Origin: Escherichia phage W143
Sequence record: MZ189262.1
DNA length: 64,000 nt
Strand: one strand, 5' to 3'
Shown: in pieces, positions 5,311-31,571 of the stretch
Position numbering within the stretch: the stretch's first letter is position 1
How the letters are laid out: each line of letters opens with the position of its first letter
Program-made: the position numbers and the translations under genes
The notes under the pieces: model-generated
Database searches by the model: none
What the model was told of the DNA's origin: nothing
The model's input: only the letters and a program-made list of their open reading frames with translations

Positions 5311-6120
5311 ATGCTTAAAGAACAACTGATTGCTGAAGCGCAAAAAATTGATGCTTCCGTTGCTCTTGATAGTATTTTCGAATCAGTTAATATTTCTCCG
5401 GAAGCAAAAGAAACTTTCGGCACTGTATTCGAAGCTACCGTCAAGCAGCACGCCGTTAAATTAGCTGAATCTCATATCGCTAAAATTGCTGAAAAAGCAG
5501 AAGAAGAAGTAGAAAAAAATAAAGAAGAAGCCGAAGAAAAAGCTGAGAAGAAAATCGCTGAGCAAGCTTCTAAATTCATCGACCATCTTGCGAAAGAATG
5601 GCTCGCTGAAAATAAATTAGCAGTTGATAAAGGCATCAAAGCCGAACTGTTTGAATCCATGCTTGGTGGATTAAAAGAGCTCTTTGTTGAACACAACGTT
5701 GTTGTTCCAGAAGAATCAGTTGATGTTGTGGCTGAAATGGAAGAAGAGCTGCAAGAACATAAAGAAGAATCAGCTCGTCTGTTTGAAGAACTCAATATGC
5801 GCGACGCATATATCAATTATGTGCAGCGTGAAGTGGCATTGAGCGAAAGTACTAAAGATCTGACTGAGTCTCAAAAAGAAAAAGTCTCTGCTCTGGTCGA
5901 AGGTATGGATTATTCAGATGAATTCTCAAATAAATTGAGTGCCATCGTAGAAATGGTGAAGAAGTCTAATAAAGATGAAAGCACTATTACTGAGGGTATA
6001 AATACTCCTGATACTGAAGCAGCCGGACTGAATTTCGTCACTGAAGCTGTAGAAGATAAAACTGCACCTGGTGCAGAAGATATTGTAAGTGTATATGCGA
6101 AAGTCGCATCTCGTTTCTAA
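5311..6120 (+). CDS. 22: prohead scaffold protein gp22
   Basis: 269 aa, highly charged E/K-rich helical sequence; TATAAATA upstream. Confidence 0.9.
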   Translation: MLKEQLIAEAQKIDASVALDSIFESVNISPEAKETFGTVFEATVKQHAVKLAESHIAKIAEKAEEEVEKNKEEAEEKAEKKIAEQASKFIDHLAKEWLAENKLAVDKGIKAELFESMLGGLKELFVEHNVVVPEESVDVVAEMEEELQEHKEESARLFEELNMRDAYINYVQREVALSESTKDLTESQKEKVSALVEGMDYSDEFSNKLSAIVEMVKKSNKDESTITEGINTPDTEAAGLNFVTEAVEDKTAPGAEDIVSVYAKVASRF

Positions 6121-6138
6121 TTTTAAAGGTTAACACAA

Positions 6139-7704
6139 ATGACTATCAAAACTAAAGCTGAACTTTTGAACAAATGGAAGCCATTACTGGAAGGTGAAGG
6201 TTTACCGGAAATTGCTAATAGCAAACAAGCGATTATCGCTAAAATCTTTGAAAACCAGGAAAAAGATTTCCAGACAGCTCCAGAGTACAAAGACGAAAAA
6301 ATCGCTCAGGCGTTCGGTTCTTTCTTAACAGAAGCTGAAATCGGTGGTGACCACGGTTACAATGCTACTAACATCGCTGCAGGTCAGACTTCTGGCGCAG
6401 TAACTCAGATTGGCCCAGCTGTTATGGGTATGGTACGTCGTGCTATTCCTAACCTGATTGCTTTCGATATTTGCGGTGTTCAGCCGATGAATAGCCCGAC
6501 CGGTCAGGTATTCGCACTGCGCGCAGTATATGGTAAAGACCCAATCGCTTCCGGCGCTAAAGAAGCATTCCACCCAATGTATGGTCCAGATGCAATGTTC
6601 TCTGGTCAGGGTGCTGCTAAGAAATTCGCTGCTTTGAAAGCAAGTGATACTCTTGAAGTTGGAACTATTTACACCCACTTCTTCCAGGACACTGGTACTG
6701 TGTATCTGCAAGCTACAGAAGCTAAACAAATTGATTCCGCTGCATCTGACGCAGACAAATTAGATGCTGAAATTAAGAAACAAATGGAAGCTGGTGTACT
6801 GGTAGAAATCGCTGAAGGTATGGCTACTTCTATCGCTGAACTTCAGGAAAGTTTCAACGGTTCTACCGATAACCCATGGAATGAAATGGGCTTCCGTATC
6901 GATAAACAAGTTATCGAAGCTAAATCTCGCCAGCTGAAAGCTGCTTACTCTATCGAATTAGCACAAGACCTCCGCGCTGTTCACGGTATGGATGCTGATG
7001 CTGAACTGTCTGGTATTCTGGCTACCGAAATCATGCTGGAAATTAACCGTGAAGTTGTTGATTGGATTAACTACTCAGCTCAGGTTGGTAAATCTGGTAT
7101 GACCCTGACTCCGGGTTCTAAAGCTGGTGTATTTGACTTCCAGGATCCGATTGATATTCGTGGTGCTCGCTGGGCGGGTGAATCCTTTAAAGCTCTGCTG
7201 TTCCAGATTGACAAAGAAGCAGTTGAAATTGCTCGTCAGACCGGTCGTGGTGAAGGTAACTTCATTATCGCTTCCCGTAACGTAGTTAACGTTCTGGCTT
7301 CAGTTGATACTGGCATTTCTTATGCTGCACAGGGTCTGGCTACCGGCTTTAACACTGATACTACCAAGTCAGTATTTGCTGGTGTTCTGGGTGGTAAATA
7401 CCGTGTATATATCGACCAGTATGCTAAACAGGATTATTTCACCGTAGGTTATAAAGGTCCGAACGAAATGGATGCAGGTATTTACTATGCTCCATATGTA
7501 GCTCTGACTCCGCTGCGTGGTTCCGATCCGAAGAACTTCCAACCAGTAATGGGATTCAAAACTCGTTACGGTATCGGTATCAACCCATTTGCAGAATCCG
7601 CTGCTCAGGCTCCGGCTTCTCGCATCCAGAGCGGTATGCCTTCTATTCTGAATAGCCTTGGTAAAAACGCTTACTTCCGCCGTGTATATGTTAAAGGTAT
7701 CTAA
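6139..7704 (+). CDS. 23: major capsid protein gp23
   Basis: 521 aa, N-terminus MTIKTKAELLNKWKPLLEGEG; strong terminator hairpin downstream. Confidence 0.95.
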   Translation: MTIKTKAELLNKWKPLLEGEGLPEIANSKQAIIAKIFENQEKDFQTAPEYKDEKIAQAFGSFLTEAEIGGDHGYNATNIAAGQTSGAVTQIGPAVMGMVRRAIPNLIAFDICGVQPMNSPTGQVFALRAVYGKDPIASGAKEAFHPMYGPDAMFSGQGAAKKFAALKASDTLEVGTIYTHFFQDTGTVYLQATEAKQIDSAASDADKLDAEIKKQMEAGVLVEIAEGMATSIAELQESFNGSTDNPWNEMGFRIDKQVIEAKSRQLKAAYSIELAQDLRAVHGMDADAELSGILATEIMLEINREVVDWINYSAQVGKSGMTLTPGSKAGVFDFQDPIDIRGARWAGESFKALLFQIDKEAVEIARQTGRGEGNFIIASRNVVNVLASVDTGISYAAQGLATGFNTDTTKSVFAGVLGGKYRVYIDQYAKQDYFTVGYKGPNEMDAGIYYAPYVALTPLRGSDPKNFQPVMGFKTRYGIGINPFAESAAQAPASRIQSGMPSILNSLGKNAYFRRVYVKGI

Positions 7705-7720
7705 GATATAACCTTATTAT

Positions 7721-7748
7721 GGGAGACTTCGGTCTCCCATTCTTGTTT
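7721..7748 (+). terminator. intrinsic terminator after gene 23
   Basis: GGGAGAC-TTCG-GTCTCCC followed by ATTCTTGTTT. Confidence 0.7.
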
Positions 7749-7753
7749 CTATA

Positions 7754-8020
7754 CTACGCAATCTTAACTCGACGGTTGATGATGTCACGGAAGTCAATAC
7801 GATTTTCTTGGATTTTCAGCCAGTTACCAGATTTGTCTTTGGTATGGGTAGAATATTCACCGTTCCACCAGAAGTCAGTAGCATAATCCATGGTTTCATA
7901 TTTCTTAACTAGGGCATTCACTGCATTACCGTTAGGATTGGAACCATATTTTTCTACCAGGGCTTTGATGTCTTTATCAAGAGCGGACAGAGTAGTACGA
8001 ATAAAGTTTAACTTGTTCAT
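7754..8020 (-). CDS. hypothetical small protein, opposite strand between genes 23 and 24
   Basis: ORF track frame 7754..8035; ATG at 8020 (MNKLNF) is preceded by GAGGAG about 7 nt upstream; early-type promoter upstream. Confidence 0.55.
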   Translation of the reverse strand: MNKLNFIRTTLSALDKDIKALVEKYGSNPNGNAVNALVKKYETMDYATDFWWNGEYSTHTKDKSGNWLKIQENRIDFRDIINRRVKIA

Positions 8021-23943: not shown

Positions 23944-23996
23944 CCTCATGTTATGTCAGTAAGACTACTATAACACAACACGAGGGACTTGTAAAC
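23944..23996 (-). repeat. 53-bp promoter-leader repeat, copy 1
   Basis: CCTCATGTTATGTCAGTAAGaCTACTATAACACAACACGAGGGACTTGTAAAC; one mismatch to copy at 39060-39112. Confidence 0.8.
23967..23996 (-). promoter_or_regulatory. early promoter for the 96-aa ORF (copy 1 of repeated promoter-leader)
   Basis: - strand GTTTACA, 17 nt spacer, TATAGT; leader carries GAGG RBS. Confidence 0.65.
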
Positions 23997-26053
23997 TACA
24001 TTTTGAACTTTTTAGACATTCCGTTGATGTTAACCAAAGAAGCCAAGATTTGAGAAACTTCGTTTTCCTCTTCTTTTGATTCTTCTACAAGGAATTGATT
24101 AAACCCAGTCATTGGACGAACTTCACCAGTTTCCATTAGATGGTCGCCATCATATACCGATTCTTCTAATTGTTCAGAAGGAGGAACGATTGTGCCTTCG
24201 ATTAGATACTTGTTATAAGCAGTTTCTTTCATCATGTACGTACTCACTTTATTAATCTTCAGCAAAATTCCACGTGGTAAAATAACTTCAGCTTCTGATG
24301 GAAATCCTGATAAATGACCTGGAACGATAACTTTGATTCGCTCAGCTCCTTTAATTACCATACCCACGCTAGTTTCAGCATCTTCATTCGCATAAGCAGA
24401 GTGACTGCCCATATGCATTAAATCTTCTGCATCAACTGAACCTTCTCCTTCACCAGAAAATACTGCGCCGGAATCATCTAGAGCCATATAGTTTTTACCA
24501 TACTCACCGAAGATATTTGGTTTAAGCGATGTGGATACGAAGTTCTTGAAGTAGAACATTTTATTTTCAATATTATGACGTAAAGTTTTAAAGGTAACTT
24601 CTTGCCCACGGTAAAGTGTAGTTCCTGGAGGAAGAACTGATCCTTTGGCAAAGGCAGAATCCATTGTCTCGATGTGTTTAATAGCTCGTTCCATATATTC
24701 TTCACGAGTAGAATCTGGTTTACCCAAAAGGAACGAGTTCATTTCAACATATGAATCTGCACAATAATCTTCAATTACATCGGACTCAGCCTGAGTTAAT
24801 CCTTTTGGGGGTACTTCAGTACTTGCATATTCATACGCTTGAGAAGCAGACTCATTAATCAATTTATAAATGCCATTCATGACAAATTGAATAATAGCTA
24901 CCTTTTCATCTGGCGTGGCTTTAGAACCTTTAACTAAATCATTGACAATTTTCTTAATAACATCAAAGCTATTAGAAATATTAATGTCAGCAAGATCGCT
25001 TAAAATTTTATCGGTTTTATAATCAAAGAATTCTTTATTCTTTAAATATTCTTGAGAACCTTGATATGTTATATCGTTCTGCAATCTGATAGACGGATCA
25101 CGTAAACGTGCATGGGCCAATGCAATATGATTTCGGAAGCTTTCTAGTTCATAATCGTTAGATTTAAAACGAGAAGCACTTCTCATACCACCGATAGCTC
25201 CTTTGCTGAAGTTTGAACCAATCTGAATAACGCCAGAGTTCATTGGTCCTTCTGCTTTATATACCGGAACTTTAGATTCAAACTCTTGATATTTCTTAGC
25301 AGCGAAGCTATCGCCCTGAAGTGAAGCATCGACAGTAGAGTATTGAGCTTGTGCTGCTAATCGACGACTAATTTTAGTTTTCTGAATAACAGCTTGATCC
25401 GTACGCTTATCATTTTCTAAAGCAATAGAAGCAGCAACAGCAACAGCTTTAGGAACAGCATTACCTGTTTTAACGTCTACATAAACATCACCAACCTTTG
25501 ATTCAACTTTTGTGAATAACTCAGTTGAAATAGGAGGTACACCTGGAATGTCTTCTAAATTGGCATTTTTACGGTAAACCATAATATATGCGTACTTTTT
25601 ATCGTAATCCCAGATTTCCTTTAAAAGAACATATCGACCTGCTCCTTTAGTACGTACTAAACGGTCAGCGATAACTTGCATTTGACGAGCTGCACCGTTT
25701 GTTTTACTCTTTAGTACGCGGAATAAGCATGCATCAATTTTATACTGTTTCATTGTCTGAAGAGCGGTATCAAAAACCGCATTAATGACACCAATTGGAT
25801 TTCCACCTAAGTTTTTAAGTTTAACTAATGATAGTTTCTCGTTGACACCTATCATTACGATATGCATCATTTTATCGCCTGGCTTAACGTTTTTGTTTGT
25901 ATCACCGCCAGAGGTGTATGTACAAAATCTAAATCCAGGAAGCACGCTTTCTTCACCGGCTTGAATAGCAAAAATTTGAGGTATTTTATGCTTAGGATTT
26001 AAGTTAACAACCGGCGCCGAAGCGCCGTCAAATAATTCTGTAATAAGTTCCAT
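23996..26053 (-). CDS. Alt-like ADP-ribosyltransferase paralogue (second copy)
   Basis: 685 aa; N-terminus MELITELFD; R-S-E motifs (LYRGQEV, FVSTSLKPNIFG, EAEVILPRG); 3 nt downstream of alt. Confidence 0.85.
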   Translation of the reverse strand: MELITELFDGASAPVVNLNPKHKIPQIFAIQAGEESVLPGFRFCTYTSGGDTNKNVKPGDKMMHIVMIGVNEKLSLVKLKNLGGNPIGVINAVFDTALQTMKQYKIDACLFRVLKSKTNGAARQMQVIADRLVRTKGAGRYVLLKEIWDYDKKYAYIMVYRKNANLEDIPGVPPISTELFTKVESKVGDVYVDVKTGNAVPKAVAVAASIALENDKRTDQAVIQKTKISRRLAAQAQYSTVDASLQGDSFAAKKYQEFESKVPVYKAEGPMNSGVIQIGSNFSKGAIGGMRSASRFKSNDYELESFRNHIALAHARLRDPSIRLQNDITYQGSQEYLKNKEFFDYKTDKILSDLADINISNSFDVIKKIVNDLVKGSKATPDEKVAIIQFVMNGIYKLINESASQAYEYASTEVPPKGLTQAESDVIEDYCADSYVEMNSFLLGKPDSTREEYMERAIKHIETMDSAFAKGSVLPPGTTLYRGQEVTFKTLRHNIENKMFYFKNFVSTSLKPNIFGEYGKNYMALDDSGAVFSGEGEGSVDAEDLMHMGSHSAYANEDAETSVGMVIKGAERIKVIVPGHLSGFPSEAEVILPRGILLKINKVSTYMMKETAYNKYLIEGTIVPPSEQLEESVYDGDHLMETGEVRPMTGFNQFLVEESKEEENEVSQILASLVNINGMSKKFKM

Positions 26054-26056
26054 GAT

Positions 26057-28111
26057 TTATCCTTGAACGAACTTGTAAGGCATGTTTGTAATATCTATGC
26101 AAGACGCAATAATTCCGAGAGATGATTCTGCTTTCTGTTTAACATTTGATGAAACAAATGATGCAAAGTCAACTCTGTCTTCTATTTCAATATCATCTGT
26201 CATTGCAACCAATTCACCAGTTTCCATTAGACGATCACCGTCATAAATTACCGATTCGGTGAGTTCTTCCGTAGTCATAACTTCAGCTTGAATAAGCTTG
26301 TTGTTAGTTTTAACTGTTCCATCATTGTAAGATGCATCGGTTATTTTATTAATTTTGACCATTAGTCCACGTGGCAAAATGACTTCCATTTCATTTGAAG
26401 GCGCTAAACTTCCACCGGGTAAAACAACATTGACTTTATCAGCTCCAGTAATAACCCATCCAATTCCAACTAAATTATCGCTAGAATTAACAAGCCCTTC
26501 ATCATTTTTATCGATAGAAATGCTTAGACGCTTTTCATCTGGTAAAACACCCACAGCTGAATCAGTCATCCAAGTACCAAAAATGTTTGGATATAATGAT
26601 GTTGATACAAAATTTCTAAAATAAAAAACTCGATTTTTTACCAATGCTTCATATATTGAAGGTAACATTCGCTGTGAACGATATAAAGTAATACCTTTTG
26701 GCAATCGATCACCATTTTTAAAGGCTGAATCTAAATTATCGATGGCTTGTTCTATTTCGGGTGCTGTCAAAATACTTGTACGCTCATCTGGATTATATAA
26801 TCCCAAAAGAGCATTATTCATGTCTACATATCCTGAACCCACATATTCACGAATTCCGCGTTTTTGAGCCGGTGTGTATTTAGATGAATCTTTATTTTCG
26901 ACTATAGAATGCAATGACCATCCAACGGTAAGAGCATATCCACGTAATTCTCTTCGAATAATCTTTGTTTTTATTGCATTCCAAGAATTTTGCACTAACT
27001 CATTTGCAGCATCTTGATTTAAATGCGAATGCTTGTTAATATTTCTTTCTAACCAAGCACTTTTATATTTTTCTAAAGTATCATCGACTATAGAAGCAAT
27101 AGTTTCTAAAGTTTTTATTGAAGTAATAGATTCTTTTCGTAATCTTTCTAAAGCTTTATTTTTTATTTCTGCATTAACATCAGATTCTTTATCTTCAGGA
27201 ATTATAGAAGCTTCTCTGAATGCCATTCCAGCTGTAACACTATTAAGAGCATTTTCTAATGCAAATCCTGAAGTAGAAATAACGGTTAATTCGTTAGCAT
27301 CAGAAATTAAAGGCGCGTCGGCGGGTTTATTTAATTCTGCTGCTGAAGCCTCAAATTTTTGAAACATTGGTGTTTCAAATCTAGAAGATTCCAATGACTG
27401 ACTTTGTGCAATTGCTCTACGTGAAATTTTAACTTTAACTATTACAGCCTGGTCAGAACGTTTATCGTTTTCTTGCGCAATAGATGCTGCAATTGCCTCA
27501 TTTTTAGTTACTTGAACCCCAGTATCTTTATTGATATAAACATCGCCGACTTTCGATTCAACTTTAGTAAAGAGCTCGGTACTAATTTCCGGAACTCCTG
27601 GAATGTCTTCTAGTGATACATTTTTGCGATGTATAAGAATATATGCATACTTTTTATCATAATCCCAGAGTTCCTTAAGAAGGACGTATCTGCCGCCTGA
27701 ACGACTACGGATAAGTCTATCAGCAATAACTTGAATTTGACGAGCTTGACCAGCAGTTTTAGACTTAAGAATACGAAGCATGCAGGCATCAATTTTATAC
27801 TGACGCATCGTCTGCATTGCAACAGTAAAAACTGAATTGATATAATTAATTGGGCTTGGACCGAGACCTTTCAATTTAGCAATTGAACCTTTAGCAGTTA
27901 ATGTAAAAGGAACAATATGCATCATTTTATCGCCCATTTTTAAATCGCGATTAGTATCACCTCCAGATGTATAGGTACATAAACGAAAGCCTGGTTGTTC
28001 AATTGCGTCATCAACATGAACTGAAAAAATTTGTGGTATTTTCTTCTTTGGATTTAAGTTTGTAATCGGAAGAGTAGTATCTTCGTCAAATAATTCTGTA
28101 ATAAGTTCCAT
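26057..28111 (-). CDS. alt: Alt ADP-ribosyltransferase (capsid-packaged)
   Basis: ORF track 26057..28114; start likely second Met (MELITELFDEDTTLPITNL); R-S-E motifs (LYRSQRM, FVSTSLYPNIFG, EMEVILPRG); TATAAATA late promoter upstream. Confidence 0.9.
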   Translation of the reverse strand: MELITELFDEDTTLPITNLNPKKKIPQIFSVHVDDAIEQPGFRLCTYTSGGDTNRDLKMGDKMMHIVPFTLTAKGSIAKLKGLGPSPINYINSVFTVAMQTMRQYKIDACMLRILKSKTAGQARQIQVIADRLIRSRSGGRYVLLKELWDYDKKYAYILIHRKNVSLEDIPGVPEISTELFTKVESKVGDVYINKDTGVQVTKNEAIAASIAQENDKRSDQAVIVKVKISRRAIAQSQSLESSRFETPMFQKFEASAAELNKPADAPLISDANELTVISTSGFALENALNSVTAGMAFREASIIPEDKESDVNAEIKNKALERLRKESITSIKTLETIASIVDDTLEKYKSAWLERNINKHSHLNQDAANELVQNSWNAIKTKIIRRELRGYALTVGWSLHSIVENKDSSKYTPAQKRGIREYVGSGYVDMNNALLGLYNPDERTSILTAPEIEQAIDNLDSAFKNGDRLPKGITLYRSQRMLPSIYEALVKNRVFYFRNFVSTSLYPNIFGTWMTDSAVGVLPDEKRLSISIDKNDEGLVNSSDNLVGIGWVITGADKVNVVLPGGSLAPSNEMEVILPRGLMVKINKITDASYNDGTVKTNNKLIQAEVMTTEELTESVIYDGDRLMETGELVAMTDDIEIEDRVDFASFVSSNVKQKAESSLGIIASCIDITNMPYKFVQG

Positions 28112-28134
28112 CATATCCTCTCTAGTGTTTATTC

Positions 28135-29812: not shown

Positions 29813-30078
29813 TGTTCATCCTTCAGAGTTTGATTTACATTTCTATTATAAATCAATTCATCATTAAGCTCAGGCAAAGACTTATGATATGTAGTTCTAA
29901 CTTTATTTCCTTGCATCCAGTGCTTGACGTAAATGAAACCTTGCTCTACACATTTTTTAAAAATTCGTTCATCCTTTTGAGCACGGAACTCTGGATTACA
30001 TCTAAAAAATTGATTTACGTGACCGTAATCACGTGTAGTATTACCTTCATTTTCATAAATAGTATGAACAACAAACAT
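29809..30078 (-). CDS. hypothetical protein (30.1 position)
   Basis: 89 aa; synteny. Confidence 0.6.
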   Translation of the reverse strand: MFVVHTIYENEGNTTRDYGHVNQFFRCNPEFRAQKDERIFKKCVEQGFIYVKHWMQGNKVRTTYHKSLPELNDELIYNRNVNQTLKDEQ

Positions 30079-30917
30079 TAGAATGCTCCTTGAAAAATAT
30101 TATCACCACTAGTAGGTCTATTATACAAATACTCTATGCCACCAGGTTTAATATAGTTCCATGTCTGAAACGGATGTGTCTGATATGGATGATATAGATG
30201 ATTATAAGGATTTAATCCAGGCGTTCTCCAGGTAGTGTTCCAAGGAAAAGAATCGTTTTTAACCATCTTCTCAATTAAATCTTTTATAGCTTTTTCACTA
30301 TCAAAACTTTCTTTATTTTCCTTTAGTGAAAAAAGCTTATTTTCTACATCATTCCATGTATAAACTCGCTGCGCAGTTTTTGGAATATTGTCACGCTCTC
30401 CTCGAGCCATCCAATAAACTGGAACATTTAATATTTCACTCGCATGATCGCAGTGATGGGCGAGATCGTCAATATAACAAATTACGTTATATTTCTCTTT
30501 TGCCTTTTTGAACAGCTCTTCTTTTGAAGAATCATGACCACACATCATTACTTCTGAGAAGGCACCAGGAAAAAGAGCATTCAAATTAAATTGACGATTC
30601 AACAGAGCGTCAATAGAATCACCCAATGCTGTAACAGCTACAAAATTATAATCTTCTTTTAATTTGTTAATTACACACAGGGCATCTTTATATGGAGACA
30701 AGTAACGAATAAAATCTGATCGATTGTATTTTTCAATTAACTTGACACCAAGTTCTTCATCACAATTAAAGAGTTTACCTGGAGAAATAAATTTCTCATC
30801 TTGGATCATTTTTAAAATATGTTCTAACGGAAGATTATATTTCTGAGCAAAATAAGGAAGACCTGATTGCCAGCTTAAACATACTCCATCAATATCAGTT
30901 AAAATAGTAGGCTTCAT
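30078..30917 (-). CDS. HAD-like hydrolase, putative 5'-nucleotidase fold with C-terminal extension (30.2 position)
   Basis: 279 aa; N-terminal LTDIDGV matches HAD motif I (DxDGV); later IDD acidic motif. Confidence 0.6.
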   Translation of the reverse strand: MKPTILTDIDGVCLSWQSGLPYFAQKYNLPLEHILKMIQDEKFISPGKLFNCDEELGVKLIEKYNRSDFIRYLSPYKDALCVINKLKEDYNFVAVTALGDSIDALLNRQFNLNALFPGAFSEVMMCGHDSSKEELFKKAKEKYNVICYIDDLAHHCDHASEILNVPVYWMARGERDNIPKTAQRVYTWNDVENKLFSLKENKESFDSEKAIKDLIEKMVKNDSFPWNTTWRTPGLNPYNHLYHPYQTHPFQTWNYIKPGGIEYLYNRPTSGDNIFQGAF

Positions 30918-31378
30918 AGAGAGTCTCTTAATAGGTTTAACACATCAATAAATTCAGCTTCGGTTAGTATTGTATCATCTTTTGTTAGACCACTAGCCAT
31001 GCTGTGCTTCAAAACTTTTCCTTTCGAGGCTTGTAATGCATCGCGAAAGCCCTTGTTTTGGAACGCTGCTTCAAAATATGCATTTGTGTATAATTCTTTC
31101 CACGCTGGAGAGTATCTTGAAAATGGAACTCCAATCCAGAACAACGTGCCACGGTCCTGAGCTCTAGCGTAAGACCTTCCAGCTTGTTGGGCGGCAAGCC
31201 CGGATAACCCAAATATACGTCTTTGCTGTTCAACATTTTTCACCTTACATCCTTGGAGGAATCCTTCGAGACCTCCAAATTGGATACCATCCATAACAAA
31301 AGGCCATTGGGCGAAATTACTTAATGCACATGATGGCCATCTAAAATTGCTTCTTATCTCTAGCTCAGACATTTTCAA
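30914..31378 (-). CDS. NADAR / YbiA-like (DUF1768) protein (30.3 position)
   Basis: 154 aa; LSNFAQWPF...DGIQFGGLEGFLQGCK and GRSYARAQDRG...FW resemble the YbiA/NADAR signature. Confidence 0.65.
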   Translation of the reverse strand: MKMSELEIRSNFRWPSCALSNFAQWPFVMDGIQFGGLEGFLQGCKVKNVEQQRRIFGLSGLAAQQAGRSYARAQDRGTLFWIGVPFSRYSPAWKELYTNAYFEAAFQNKGFRDALQASKGKVLKHSMASGLTKDDTILTEAEFIDVLNLLRDSL

Positions 31379-31571
31379 TACTTATAATTTCAACATCAGC
31401 CCAATGACCATAGCAAGGAAGACGAAATTCAACTGGCCAGTTAGGGTCCTTTTCTAATATAATAGACTGAACTTGTGGCTCTTCATATTCATCGGTATAC
31501 GGACCTTTATACGTTACTTTATATGTGACCTTAATGTACTGAATTCCAAAAATCTTATTAATTATATTCAT
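31365..31571 (-). CDS. hypothetical protein (30.x cluster)
   Basis: 68 aa; overlapping-stop arrangement. Confidence 0.5.
   Translation of the reverse strand: MNIINKIFGIQYIKVTYKVTYKGPYTDEYEEPQVQSIILEKDPNWPVEFRLPCYGHWADVEIISIENV

Follow-up and report, generated by a model that had tools for sequence, protein, structure and literature searches.

Among the closest described relatives of the proteins discussed here are NADAR enzymes that act on ADP-ribosylated DNA. DarG1, a NADAR antitoxin of the BC4488 subfamily, is linked to the toxin DarT1 and is known from G. lovleyi (8bat) and E. coli C7 (PMC11543638). Phage T4 carries AdfN (anti-DarT factor NADAR), the product of its gene 30.3 (Johannesman et al., Nat Commun 2025, PMC11825919). 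T4 and T2 phages without adfN are sensitised to DarTG1, RB69 is rescued by ectopic adfN expression, the substitutions E36A and K43A each weaken the protein, and the purified enzyme takes ADP-ribose off DarT1-modified DNA (PMC11825919). Furthermore, T4 gp30.3 has guanine-ADPr hydrolase activity in vitro (PMC11125620). In a published T4 Tn-seq comparison, apparently of one replicate pair, 30.3 insertions were lost on a DarTG1 host (log2FC -7.25); the gene was dispensable without DarTG1 (27 of 28 TA sites hit) and in minimal medium. Its authors describe AdfN as, so far as they know, the first case of a lytic phage using its own copy of a bacterial antitoxin in counter-defence (PMC11825919).

Expressed in E. 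coli without infection, T4 AdfN gives no protection from DarT1 toxicity (PMC11825919, PMC11125620), and its rescue of non-T-even phages is only weak (PMC11825919). A mechanism based on one enzyme is thus incomplete and needs a T-even factor, postulated as a "potentiating factor" (PMC11825919). NADAR proteins such as PnNADAR (E43) and T4 AdfN (E36 and K43) bind the distal ribose through a conserved glutamate/lysine pair (PMC11543638, PMC11825919). Phage NADARs have a histidine in place of Glu125 (PMC11543638), a replacement also treated as their defining feature in PMC11125620. E. coli YbiA (2b3w), the founding member of the NADAR/DUF1768 family, is implicated in the cleavage of N-glycosides among riboflavin intermediates, and its operon is under LexA control (PMC11125620).

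Identity and gene order of the locus

The window, a stretch of 64,000 nucleotides from Escherichia phage W143 (MZ189262.1), is a T4-like (Tequatrovirus) genome. Its DNA shares 98% identity with Tequatrovirus genomes, and it reproduces the T4 gene order alt, 30, 30.1, 30.2, 30.3, 30.4 ... 31, rIII, cd. A reading made from the sequence alone had singled out two minus-strand ORFs of 154 and 279 amino acids as a NADAR/YbiA-like and a HAD-type protein. Both are in place, with the motifs LSNFAQWPF, GLEGFLQGCK and GRSYARAQDRG in the shorter ORF and LTDIDGV in the longer, and they are genes 30.3 and 30.2. The shorter ORF is a real gene, but in the T4 annotation it starts at the ATG at 31372 and not at the TTG at 31378, two codons earlier, from which 154 residues had been counted. 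With the ATG taken as the start, gene 30.3 (adfN; 30914..31372, minus strand) encodes 152 amino acids and follows the published E36/K43 numbering. We put the probability at about 0.87 that 30.3 is AdfN and that 30.2 encodes a separate HAD phosphatase, the two being coupled neighbours and gp30.2 not being required against DarTG1.

All of these genes read from high to low coordinates, in the order 30.4 > 30.3 > 30.2 > 30.1 > 30, so that 30.3 and 30.2 lie upstream of the DNA ligase gene in transcriptional terms and not, as had been proposed, downstream of it. Genes 30.1 (DUF3045, PF11243; 29809-30078) and 30 (ATP-dependent DNA ligase, PF01068; 28349-29812), both on the minus strand, follow 30.2 as they do in T4. 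The proximity to ligase, once read as a clue to function, is ordinary T4 gene order. Stop and start codons overlap along the run from 30.4 to 30 (ATGA, TAATG). The 30.3 stop and 30.2 start share an ATGA, and an overlap of 8 nt joins the stop of gene 30.4 (68 aa, phrog_2042; 31365..31571, minus strand) to the adfN start. Scanning 28-34 kb for promoters and terminators gave counts (23 and 4) that did not differ from those in shuffled sequence (21.1 and 3.6), and no terminator-like site from 30.4 to ligase; a separate transcription unit is therefore not evidenced. Genes 30.3 and 30.2 are probably co-transcribed, translationally coupled neighbours in the dense T4 early/middle region.

The adfN gene also contains a nested ORF in the +1 frame, 30.3' (75 codons; 31009..31236, minus strand), present both in the ORF list and in the T4 annotation. 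It is open over 53-75 codons in relatives at least 83% identical and is not open in divergent T4-like phages. In T4, 30.3' is annotated as an internal translation product.

The NADAR protein encoded by gene 30.3

The window's gp30.3 matches the Pfam family Phage_30_3 (PF08010) with an E-value of 1.7e-69 and 232 bits (cut-off, 36). It is identical to T4 gp30.3 at 149 of 152 positions (98%) and colinear with it to the last residue. The only difference detected between the two proteins is a set of three conservative replacements, with I80, F104 and M125 where T4 has L, I and I, respectively. These replacements leave E36, K43 and H123 untouched, although M125 is two residues from H123. Length, placement between 30.4 and 30.2, the catalytic residues, the C-terminal helix and the nested 30.3' are all as in T4 AdfN. 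The C-terminal helix is complete (residues 138-151 in the model) and free of the RB69-type frameshift, which truncates the protein by 15 residues.

For both gp30.3 and gp30.2, single-sequence searches against PDB sequences returned noise only and NCBIfam searches returned no match, and the assignments relied on family profiles and structure prediction. The window's gp30.3 has no match to Pfam NADAR (PF08719) at E-values up to 1; among its relatives, 23 of 62 do, the best at 1.5e-7. The gp30.3 family profile matches E. coli YbiA over the SNFA...E..Q..K motif and aligns E36 and K43 to the E...K of YbiA. A fold search retrieved, above noise, NADAR structures only, and the YbiA fold is present as a core helical bundle with two small flanking sheets. 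E36 and H123 are invariant in an alignment of 62 gp30.3 homologues, and K43 is conserved in at least 90% of them. Fold, family matches and catalytic residues bear out the NADAR call that had been made from the motifs.

The protein differs from its cellular relatives in several respects. Identity to YbiA is 17-20%, and YbiA retains the last-strand glutamate at the position that H123 occupies in gp30.3. DarG1 has a catalytic aspartate there (D171 in the E. coli C7 NADAR). In contrast to DarG1, gp30.3 is an orphan, with 30.4 and 30.2 as neighbours and no adjoining DarT1 gene; the ADP-ribosyltransferases encoded near 30.3 are of the Alt type (PF03496), not DarT. Furthermore, the gp30.3 type, as represented by T4, is not an antitoxin in uninfected cells.

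By orthology, we infer that the gp30.3 of this phage is an AdfN-type DNA de-ADP-ribosylating enzyme that counters DarTG1. The mechanism demonstrated with the T4 protein (98% identical) would operate here as follows. The DarT1 toxin of the host would put ADP-ribose on guanines of replicating phage DNA. AdfN, an orphan relative of the DarG1 antitoxin with the NADAR fold, would cut the N-glycosidic bond between guanine N2 and the ribose, releasing ADP-ribose and restoring the base, so that replication could go on. E36 and K43 would hold the distal ribose, while H123 would substitute for the last-strand glutamate or aspartate of other NADARs. The sequence-only reading had arrived at an anti-DarT role as well, one already established for the T4 protein by genetics, biochemistry and Tn-seq (PMC11825919, PMC11125620) and published for T4 and T2 in 2024-2025. 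The window carries a 98%-identical allele of published AdfN, which lengthens the list of carriers by one without adding to the biology. The check suggested at that point, rescue of E. coli from DarT toxicity, divides by context: T4 AdfN gives no rescue in uninfected cells but is the anti-DarTG1 factor during infection. As a refuting test, it would have misled.

The HAD-type protein encoded by gene 30.2

Gene 30.2 encodes a protein 96% identical to T4 gp30.2 that matches phrog_420 at an E-value of 5.3e-93 and is conserved across approximately 1400 T4-like phage genomes. Residues 1-220 (30258..30917, minus strand) are predicted to fold as an NT5C-like phosphatase core of the HAD superfamily, topped by a helical cap. 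The four HAD motifs are present: motif I as D8-x-D10-G, motif II as T96, motif III as K132 and motif IV as D150-D151. Across 58 gp30.2 homologues, D8, D10, G11 and K132 are invariant, with conservation of 90% or more at T96, D150 and D151. The window's protein has no Pfam match at E-values up to 1 and does not reach the gathering score of NT5C (PF06941), but 12 of its 58 relatives match NT5C (best E-value, 1.2e-4) and 15 match Hydrolase. The family profile also matches mouse cdN (2jao; E-value, 0.027) in an alignment that spans motif I and the cap.

The AF2 model of gp30.2 (core pLDDT >90) is a Rossmannoid core with a cap domain. Its best Foldseek matches (2jao, 3bwv and 2i7d, at E-values of about 1e-7) comprise cdN/mdN and a deoxyribonucleotidase-like protein from a staphylococcus. 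Foldseek returned 106 PDB matches at E-values of 0.001 or below; the best 50 of the 106 are all HAD-superfamily proteins and include cdN/mdN at ranks 1, 6, 10, 15, 27, 35 and 46 (target-normalised TM, 0.63-0.68). Motifs, profile match, predicted structure and the Pfam matches of relatives support the view that gp30.2 is a genuine HAD-fold protein, probably 5'(3')-deoxyribonucleotidase-like, in line with the nucleotidase-like call made for this ORF.

With cdN and mdN (NT5C, PF06941; 2jao, 2i7d and 1q92), gp30.2 shares the HAD core with a four-helix cap, the extended motif I D-x-D-G-V-x-x-x-[FW]-x-S-G-L and conserved motifs II-IV. Identity to these enzymes is 16-18%, however, and gp30.2 adds a C-terminal tail of approximately 55 residues that is predicted to be disordered. 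This Pro/aromatic-rich tail (residues 226-279 plus the stop codon; 30078..30242, minus strand) was delimited by AF2 pLDDT and alignment, with pLDDT below 50 at residues 226-236 and 239-278. It varies in length, and a terminal GIEY(L/W)xNxPT-like motif is common to several T4-like genera. T4 PseT (polynucleotide kinase/3'-phosphatase) is likewise a HAD-type DxD phosphatase from the same phage group, but gp30.2 lacks a kinase domain and its top structural matches are mononucleotidases. In the profile alignment, the aromatic residues W16, F43 and Y64 of gp30.2 are paired with mouse cdN residues F20, F46 and Y67, which would line the base pocket in cdN; a literature search on cdN F18, F44 and Y65 as base-pocket residues gave no paper.

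From its fold and motifs, gp30.2 would be a 5'(3')-deoxyribonucleotidase-type HAD phosphatase that depends on Mg2+ and is separate from AdfN. D8 would carry the aspartyl-phosphate intermediate and D10 would serve as the acid/base; the most likely targets are nucleoside monophosphates or similar small phosphoesters. Our literature searches on gp30.2 found no publication. In the published T4 Tn-seq data, insertions hit 72 of the 72 TA sites in 30.2, which marks the gene as non-essential, and they were neutral in M9 versus LB (-0.10). The T4 screen tables (DarTG1; LB versus M9) thus hold no gp30.2 phenotype.

Alternative roles and the link between the two genes

Other substrates can be considered for each protein. 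The authors of PMC11125620 argue for context-specific NADAR substrates, two Alt paralogues lie 2-7 kb from 30.3, and AdfN(T4) is fully effective only in T-even infection. These points would fit a gp30.3 whose main substrate is phage-made, for example the ADP-ribosylated or NAD-derived adducts of Alt-type ADP-ribosyltransferases, with anti-DarTG1 activity as a side benefit. However, every NADAR tested is specific for guanine-ADPr (PMC11825919, PMC11125620), the annotated role of Alt is to modify protein (RNA polymerase), and gp30.3 is distant from alt in other T4-like genera. The phenotype of 30.3 on DarTG1 is also dramatic and specific, and the gene is dispensable otherwise, which makes a phage-made main substrate very improbable. 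A YbiA-type metabolic N-glycosidase acting on riboflavin-pathway intermediates has in its favour that E. coli YbiA is the closest solved structure detectable by sequence. We give this role next to no credence because the last-strand glutamate that defines YbiA is replaced by histidine, the published 30.3 phenotypes are specific to DarTG1, and none appears in minimal medium. For gp30.2, a polynucleotide end-healing phosphatase that readies nicks for ligase, like the HAD domain of T4 PseT, would agree with a weak PHROG match to 'polynucleotide kinase' (phrog_415; E-value, 0.002; residues 74-177). It would also suit the position of 30.2 two genes upstream of ligase and a bacterial contig where a NADAR::NT5C fusion occurs with RtcB and other phosphatases. 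This activity is nonetheless unlikely: the best structure and profile matches are mononucleotide 5'(3')-deoxyribonucleotidases rather than PNK phosphatases, the aromatic residues align with those of cdN, T4 already encodes PseT, and T4 gene order predicts function weakly.

The sequence-only reading had also suggested that gp30.3 and gp30.2 could form one module. In such a two-enzyme arrangement, gp30.2 would potentiate AdfN or process a product or intermediate of de-ADP-ribosylation, for example a phosphoribosyl remnant or ADP-ribose-derived phosphoesters. The ATGA overlap speaks for a module, as does the dependence of AdfN(T4) on a T-even factor. The same-strand 30.3>30.2 order recurs in 22 of 80 gp30.3-anchored and 37 of 78 gp30.2-anchored loci, reaching T4-like phages only about 45% identical, and the two genes have near-identical host-genus distributions (approximately 1450-1500 phage records with homologues of each). 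Nevertheless, 58 of the 80 gp30.3 loci have no gp30.2 inside 6 kb, seven T4-like genomes carry both genes 53-69 kb apart, and the gp30.3 genes of non-Straboviridae phages have no HAD neighbour. Nor did any family recur among the genes directly flanking gp30.3 in a set of 45 non-redundant cases. Adjacency is thus not conserved over the gp30.3 family. A Rosetta-stone survey of 48 long gp30.3-family proteins found two natural gp30.3-type NADAR::NT5C fusions, P0323 (NT5C E-value, 1.6e-16) and P0293, each on a single contig, and one HAD-like fusion. With 42% identity between them, the two NT5C fusions probably go back to one event in a single bacterial clade; motif I is lost from P0293, and the gp30.2 family profile fails to detect the fused NT5C domains. 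Finally, in the T4 Tn-seq on DarTG1, a method to which redundant functions are invisible, 30.2 was neutral (log2FC -0.12, p 0.61) while 30.3 was lost, and the only 2 significant genes of the whole screen were 30.3 and 30.4. We therefore regard the module as quite improbable, although the tight 30.3>30.2 coupling and the rare fusions leave room for some functional link.

Returning to AdfN as the counter-DarTG1 enzyme and gp30.2 as a separate phosphatase, we also considered which protein might supply the T-even factor. As an AdfN helper, gp30.2 was largely rejected on the T4 Tn-seq, the synteny counts and the lack of a recurrent neighbour family; with the fusion data included, it is unlikely to be the factor. 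It could contribute redundantly, for instance by removing a phosphorylated by-product that de-ADP-ribosylation leaves behind. A weak pointer leads to gp30.4: on the DarTG1 host, 30.4 was the sole significant gene besides 30.3 (log2FC -1.79, adjusted P 0.014). There is a small chance that the helper is phage-encoded and one of these translationally coupled neighbours, gp30.4 or gp30.2. If so, the potentiating factor of PMC11825919 would be identified. Gene 30.4 was found only beside adfN, in close relatives (14 of 80 loci), and is confined to the clade where AdfN(T4) works.

Gene order at the 30.3–30.2 locus

The minus strand carries the genes of the 28.3–35.2 kb region of the window (ORF list and Pfam). 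Those listed for this region are two Alt-type ADP-ribosyltransferases, DNA ligase (487 aa), a DUF3045 protein (89 aa), a 279-aa ORF (30078–30917) and a 154-aa ORF, beyond which the same strand encodes small ORFs followed by GroES-like gp31, rIII and dCMP deaminase. The 1.8 kb surrounding the 279-aa and 154-aa ORFs is 97–98% identical to many Tequatrovirus genomes, and the gene order (alt, alt.1, 30, 30.1, 30.2, 30.3 with its nested 30.3′, 30.4 and onward) is identical to that annotated in T4. Thus, the two ORFs are genes 30.2 and 30.3. The annotated T4 start of 30.3 is an ATG at 31372 (152 aa), two codons downstream of the TTG (31378) used in the sequence-only reading. All peptide strings quoted in that reading are present in the sequence; it had placed the pair downstream of DNA ligase, but by direction of transcription the pair lies upstream. 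Stop and start codons overlap at each junction from 30.4 through 30, and a promoter/terminator consensus scan gave no signal exceeding shuffled expectation.

Two full-length Alt-type ADP-ribosyltransferase paralogues (685 aa, both PF03496) lie in tandem on the minus strand at 23996–26053 and 26057–28114 and are 41% identical to each other. T4, by contrast, has a single alt and short remnants of an old duplication (alt.-1 and alt.-2). Elsewhere, the G+C content rises to 0.439 at 6001–8000, the remainder of the window being at about 0.35; no tRNA genes were found across the whole window.

The NADAR protein AdfN and gene 30.4

The product of gene 30.3 (adfN, 30914–31372, minus strand) matches Pfam Phage_30_3 (PF08010, E 1.7e-69) and is identical to T4 gp30.3 at 149 of 152 positions. 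Across 62 aligned homologues, residues E36 and H123 never vary and K43 almost never does; 23 of these sequences additionally hit Pfam NADAR (PF08719), the strongest at E 1.5e-7. A profile built from the alignment matches E. coli YbiA (2b3w, E 0.0055) across the SNFA...E..Q..K motif. The family is large, with 1680 representatives after clustering at 50% identity (E ≤ 0.001). The protein shows every testable defining feature of the NADAR superfamily and of its phage gp30.3/AdfN clade and belongs to both; its place in the superfamily agrees with the NADAR call for the 154-aa ORF. It works like DarG1, the NADAR antitoxin of the DarTG1 defence system, but is not a DarG1 because it has no adjacent DarT and carries His where DarG1 has Asp. 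Phage NADARs with His replacing the Glu of the last strand were noted by De Souza and Aravind and then by Schuller et al. (PMC11543638).

The anti-DarTG1 role of gene 30.3 is already published. Johannesman et al. identified this gene, which they renamed adfN, as the locus that makes T2 and T4 resistant to DarTG1, and its deletion sensitised both phages (PMC11825919). RB69, whose own allele is frameshifted, was rescued by ectopic adfN; purified AdfN removed ADP-ribose from DarT1-modified DNA, and E36A and K43A weakened the protein (PMC11825919). T4 gp30.3 hydrolyses guanine-ADP-ribose, not thymidine-ADP-ribose, in vitro (PMC11125620). Confirmation comes from a T4 transposon screen, in which 30.3 insertions are lost on a DarTG1 host (bioRxiv 10.1101/2025.11.20.689424). 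The window allele keeps all residues named in published work and a full-length C-terminal helix, and on sequence grounds the role can be transferred to it with high confidence. The NADAR half of the proposed anti-DarT function was sound. The refutation proposed with it, failure to rescue E. coli from DarT toxicity, is unsuitable, since T4 gp30.3 does not rescue DarT1 toxicity (PMC11125620) despite its genuine anti-DarTG1 role. Because AdfN has no antitoxin action in uninfected cells and only a weak effect for T5 and Bas25, its discoverers postulated a T-even helper (PMC11825919).

Gene 30.4 (31365–31571, minus strand) is a candidate for this helper because it is confined to the clade with fully active AdfN(T4), where it lies always directly upstream (14 of 80 loci). 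In the published T4 Tn-seq screen it was the sole gene besides adfN significantly depleted on the DarTG1 host (log2FC −1.79, adjusted P 0.014). The simplest reading of this depletion is a polar effect, as 30.4 shares 8 nt with the start of adfN.

The nested ORF 30.3′ (31009–31236, minus strand, +1 frame, 75 codons; ORF list and T4 annotation) is retained within adfN. The putative frame is open for 53–75 codons where gp30.3 identity is at least 83% and is not open in divergent T4-like phages. Several deposited Tequatrovirus-like entries (P0004–P0007, P0013 and P0017 among the gp30.3-family relatives) encode truncated gp30.3 of 89–126 aa, recalling the frameshift that inactivates AdfN in RB69. 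Natural loss-of-function alleles of AdfN may be common.

The predicted HAD phosphatase gp30.2

The window gp30.2 was assigned to phrog_420 and had no match in Pfam or NCBIfam; among its relatives, 12 of 58 match NT5C and 15 of 58 Hydrolase. In the 58-homologue alignment, D8, D10, G11 and K132 are invariant and T96, D150 and D151 at least 90% conserved, corresponding to HAD motifs I–IV. The AF2 model has a core with pLDDT > 90 to about residue 205, falling thereafter, and its best PDB matches, at E about 1e-7, are the 5′(3′)-deoxyribonucleotidases cdN and mdN and a staphylococcal deoxyribonucleotidase-like protein. Other HAD enzymes rank below them. The motifs and structural matches bear out the HAD nucleotidase-like call for the 279-aa ORF: gp30.2 belongs to the HAD superfamily. 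Its resemblance is to the NT5C enzymes, but we term it NT5C-like rather than a member because the window protein falls below the Pfam NT5C threshold.

The family profile also aligns with mouse cdN (E 0.027) over the extended motif I and cap, placing the conserved aromatics W16, F43 and Y64 opposite mouse F20, F46 and Y67. We take these mouse residues to line the base pocket, which a literature search did not confirm. Separate searches yielded no literature on gp30.2. The predicted activity is most likely that of a Mg2+-dependent mononucleotide phosphatase. The Pro/aromatic-rich tail (residues 226–279; 30078–30242, minus strand) is predicted to be disordered (AF2 and alignment). The tail closes with a short GIEY(L/W)xNxPT-like motif shared by several T4-like genera, although its remainder is variable. 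This terminal motif may be a docking peptide.

Adjacency of genes 30.3 and 30.2

The sequence-only reading suggested that gp30.3 and gp30.2 could form an anti-defence or DNA-repair module. Their coding sequences do overlap, their host-genus distributions match, and the same-strand order 30.3>30.2 recurs at 22 of 80 gp30.3-anchored and 37 of 78 gp30.2-anchored loci, including phages at about 45% identity. Yet gp30.2 is absent within 6 kb at the other 58 gp30.3 loci, and seven T4-like genomes carry the genes 53–69 kb apart. Neither a Dolichocephalovirinae phage nor an Ackermannviridae phage has a HAD neighbour beside gp30.3, and the genes directly flanking 45 non-redundant copies of gp30.3 have no family in common. 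Protein fusions point towards a link, as 2 of 48 multi-domain gp30.3-family proteins contain an NT5C domain (P0323, E 1.6e-16, and P0293) and another (P0224) a HAD-like domain; the P0323 contig also bears an ADP-ribosylglycohydrolase, a second NADAR, RtcB and two further phosphatase-like genes. The two NT5C fusions, however, are 42% identical to each other, occur on one contig each, include one without motif I and are not detected by the gp30.2 family profile.

The genetic data argue against a module. T4 30.2 is dispensable, with insertions at 72 of 72 TA sites, and its insertions are neutral in M9 versus LB. On the DarTG1 host they are also neutral (log2FC −0.12, p 0.61, against −7.25 for 30.3), and the header of the Tn-seq sheet counts two significant genes in all, these being 30.3 and 30.4. 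We conclude that the two genes are neighbours through inheritance of the T4 gene order and that the anti-DarTG1 function does not require gp30.2; the genes may still be linked redundantly or under particular conditions.

NADAR domains of the gp30.3 type (P0205–P0350) occur as tandem copies or fused to LRR, ASCH, SLOG/YpsA, GDSL lipase or NT5C domains. One contig (L163:1–7851, Logan ERR9710099) encodes ADP_ribosyl_GH, NADAR, a partial gp30.3, a metallopeptidase, RtcB, a gp30.3::NT5C fusion, a PTP-NADK-like gene and LMWPc, and has the appearance of an island for nucleic-acid de-ADP-ribosylation and repair.
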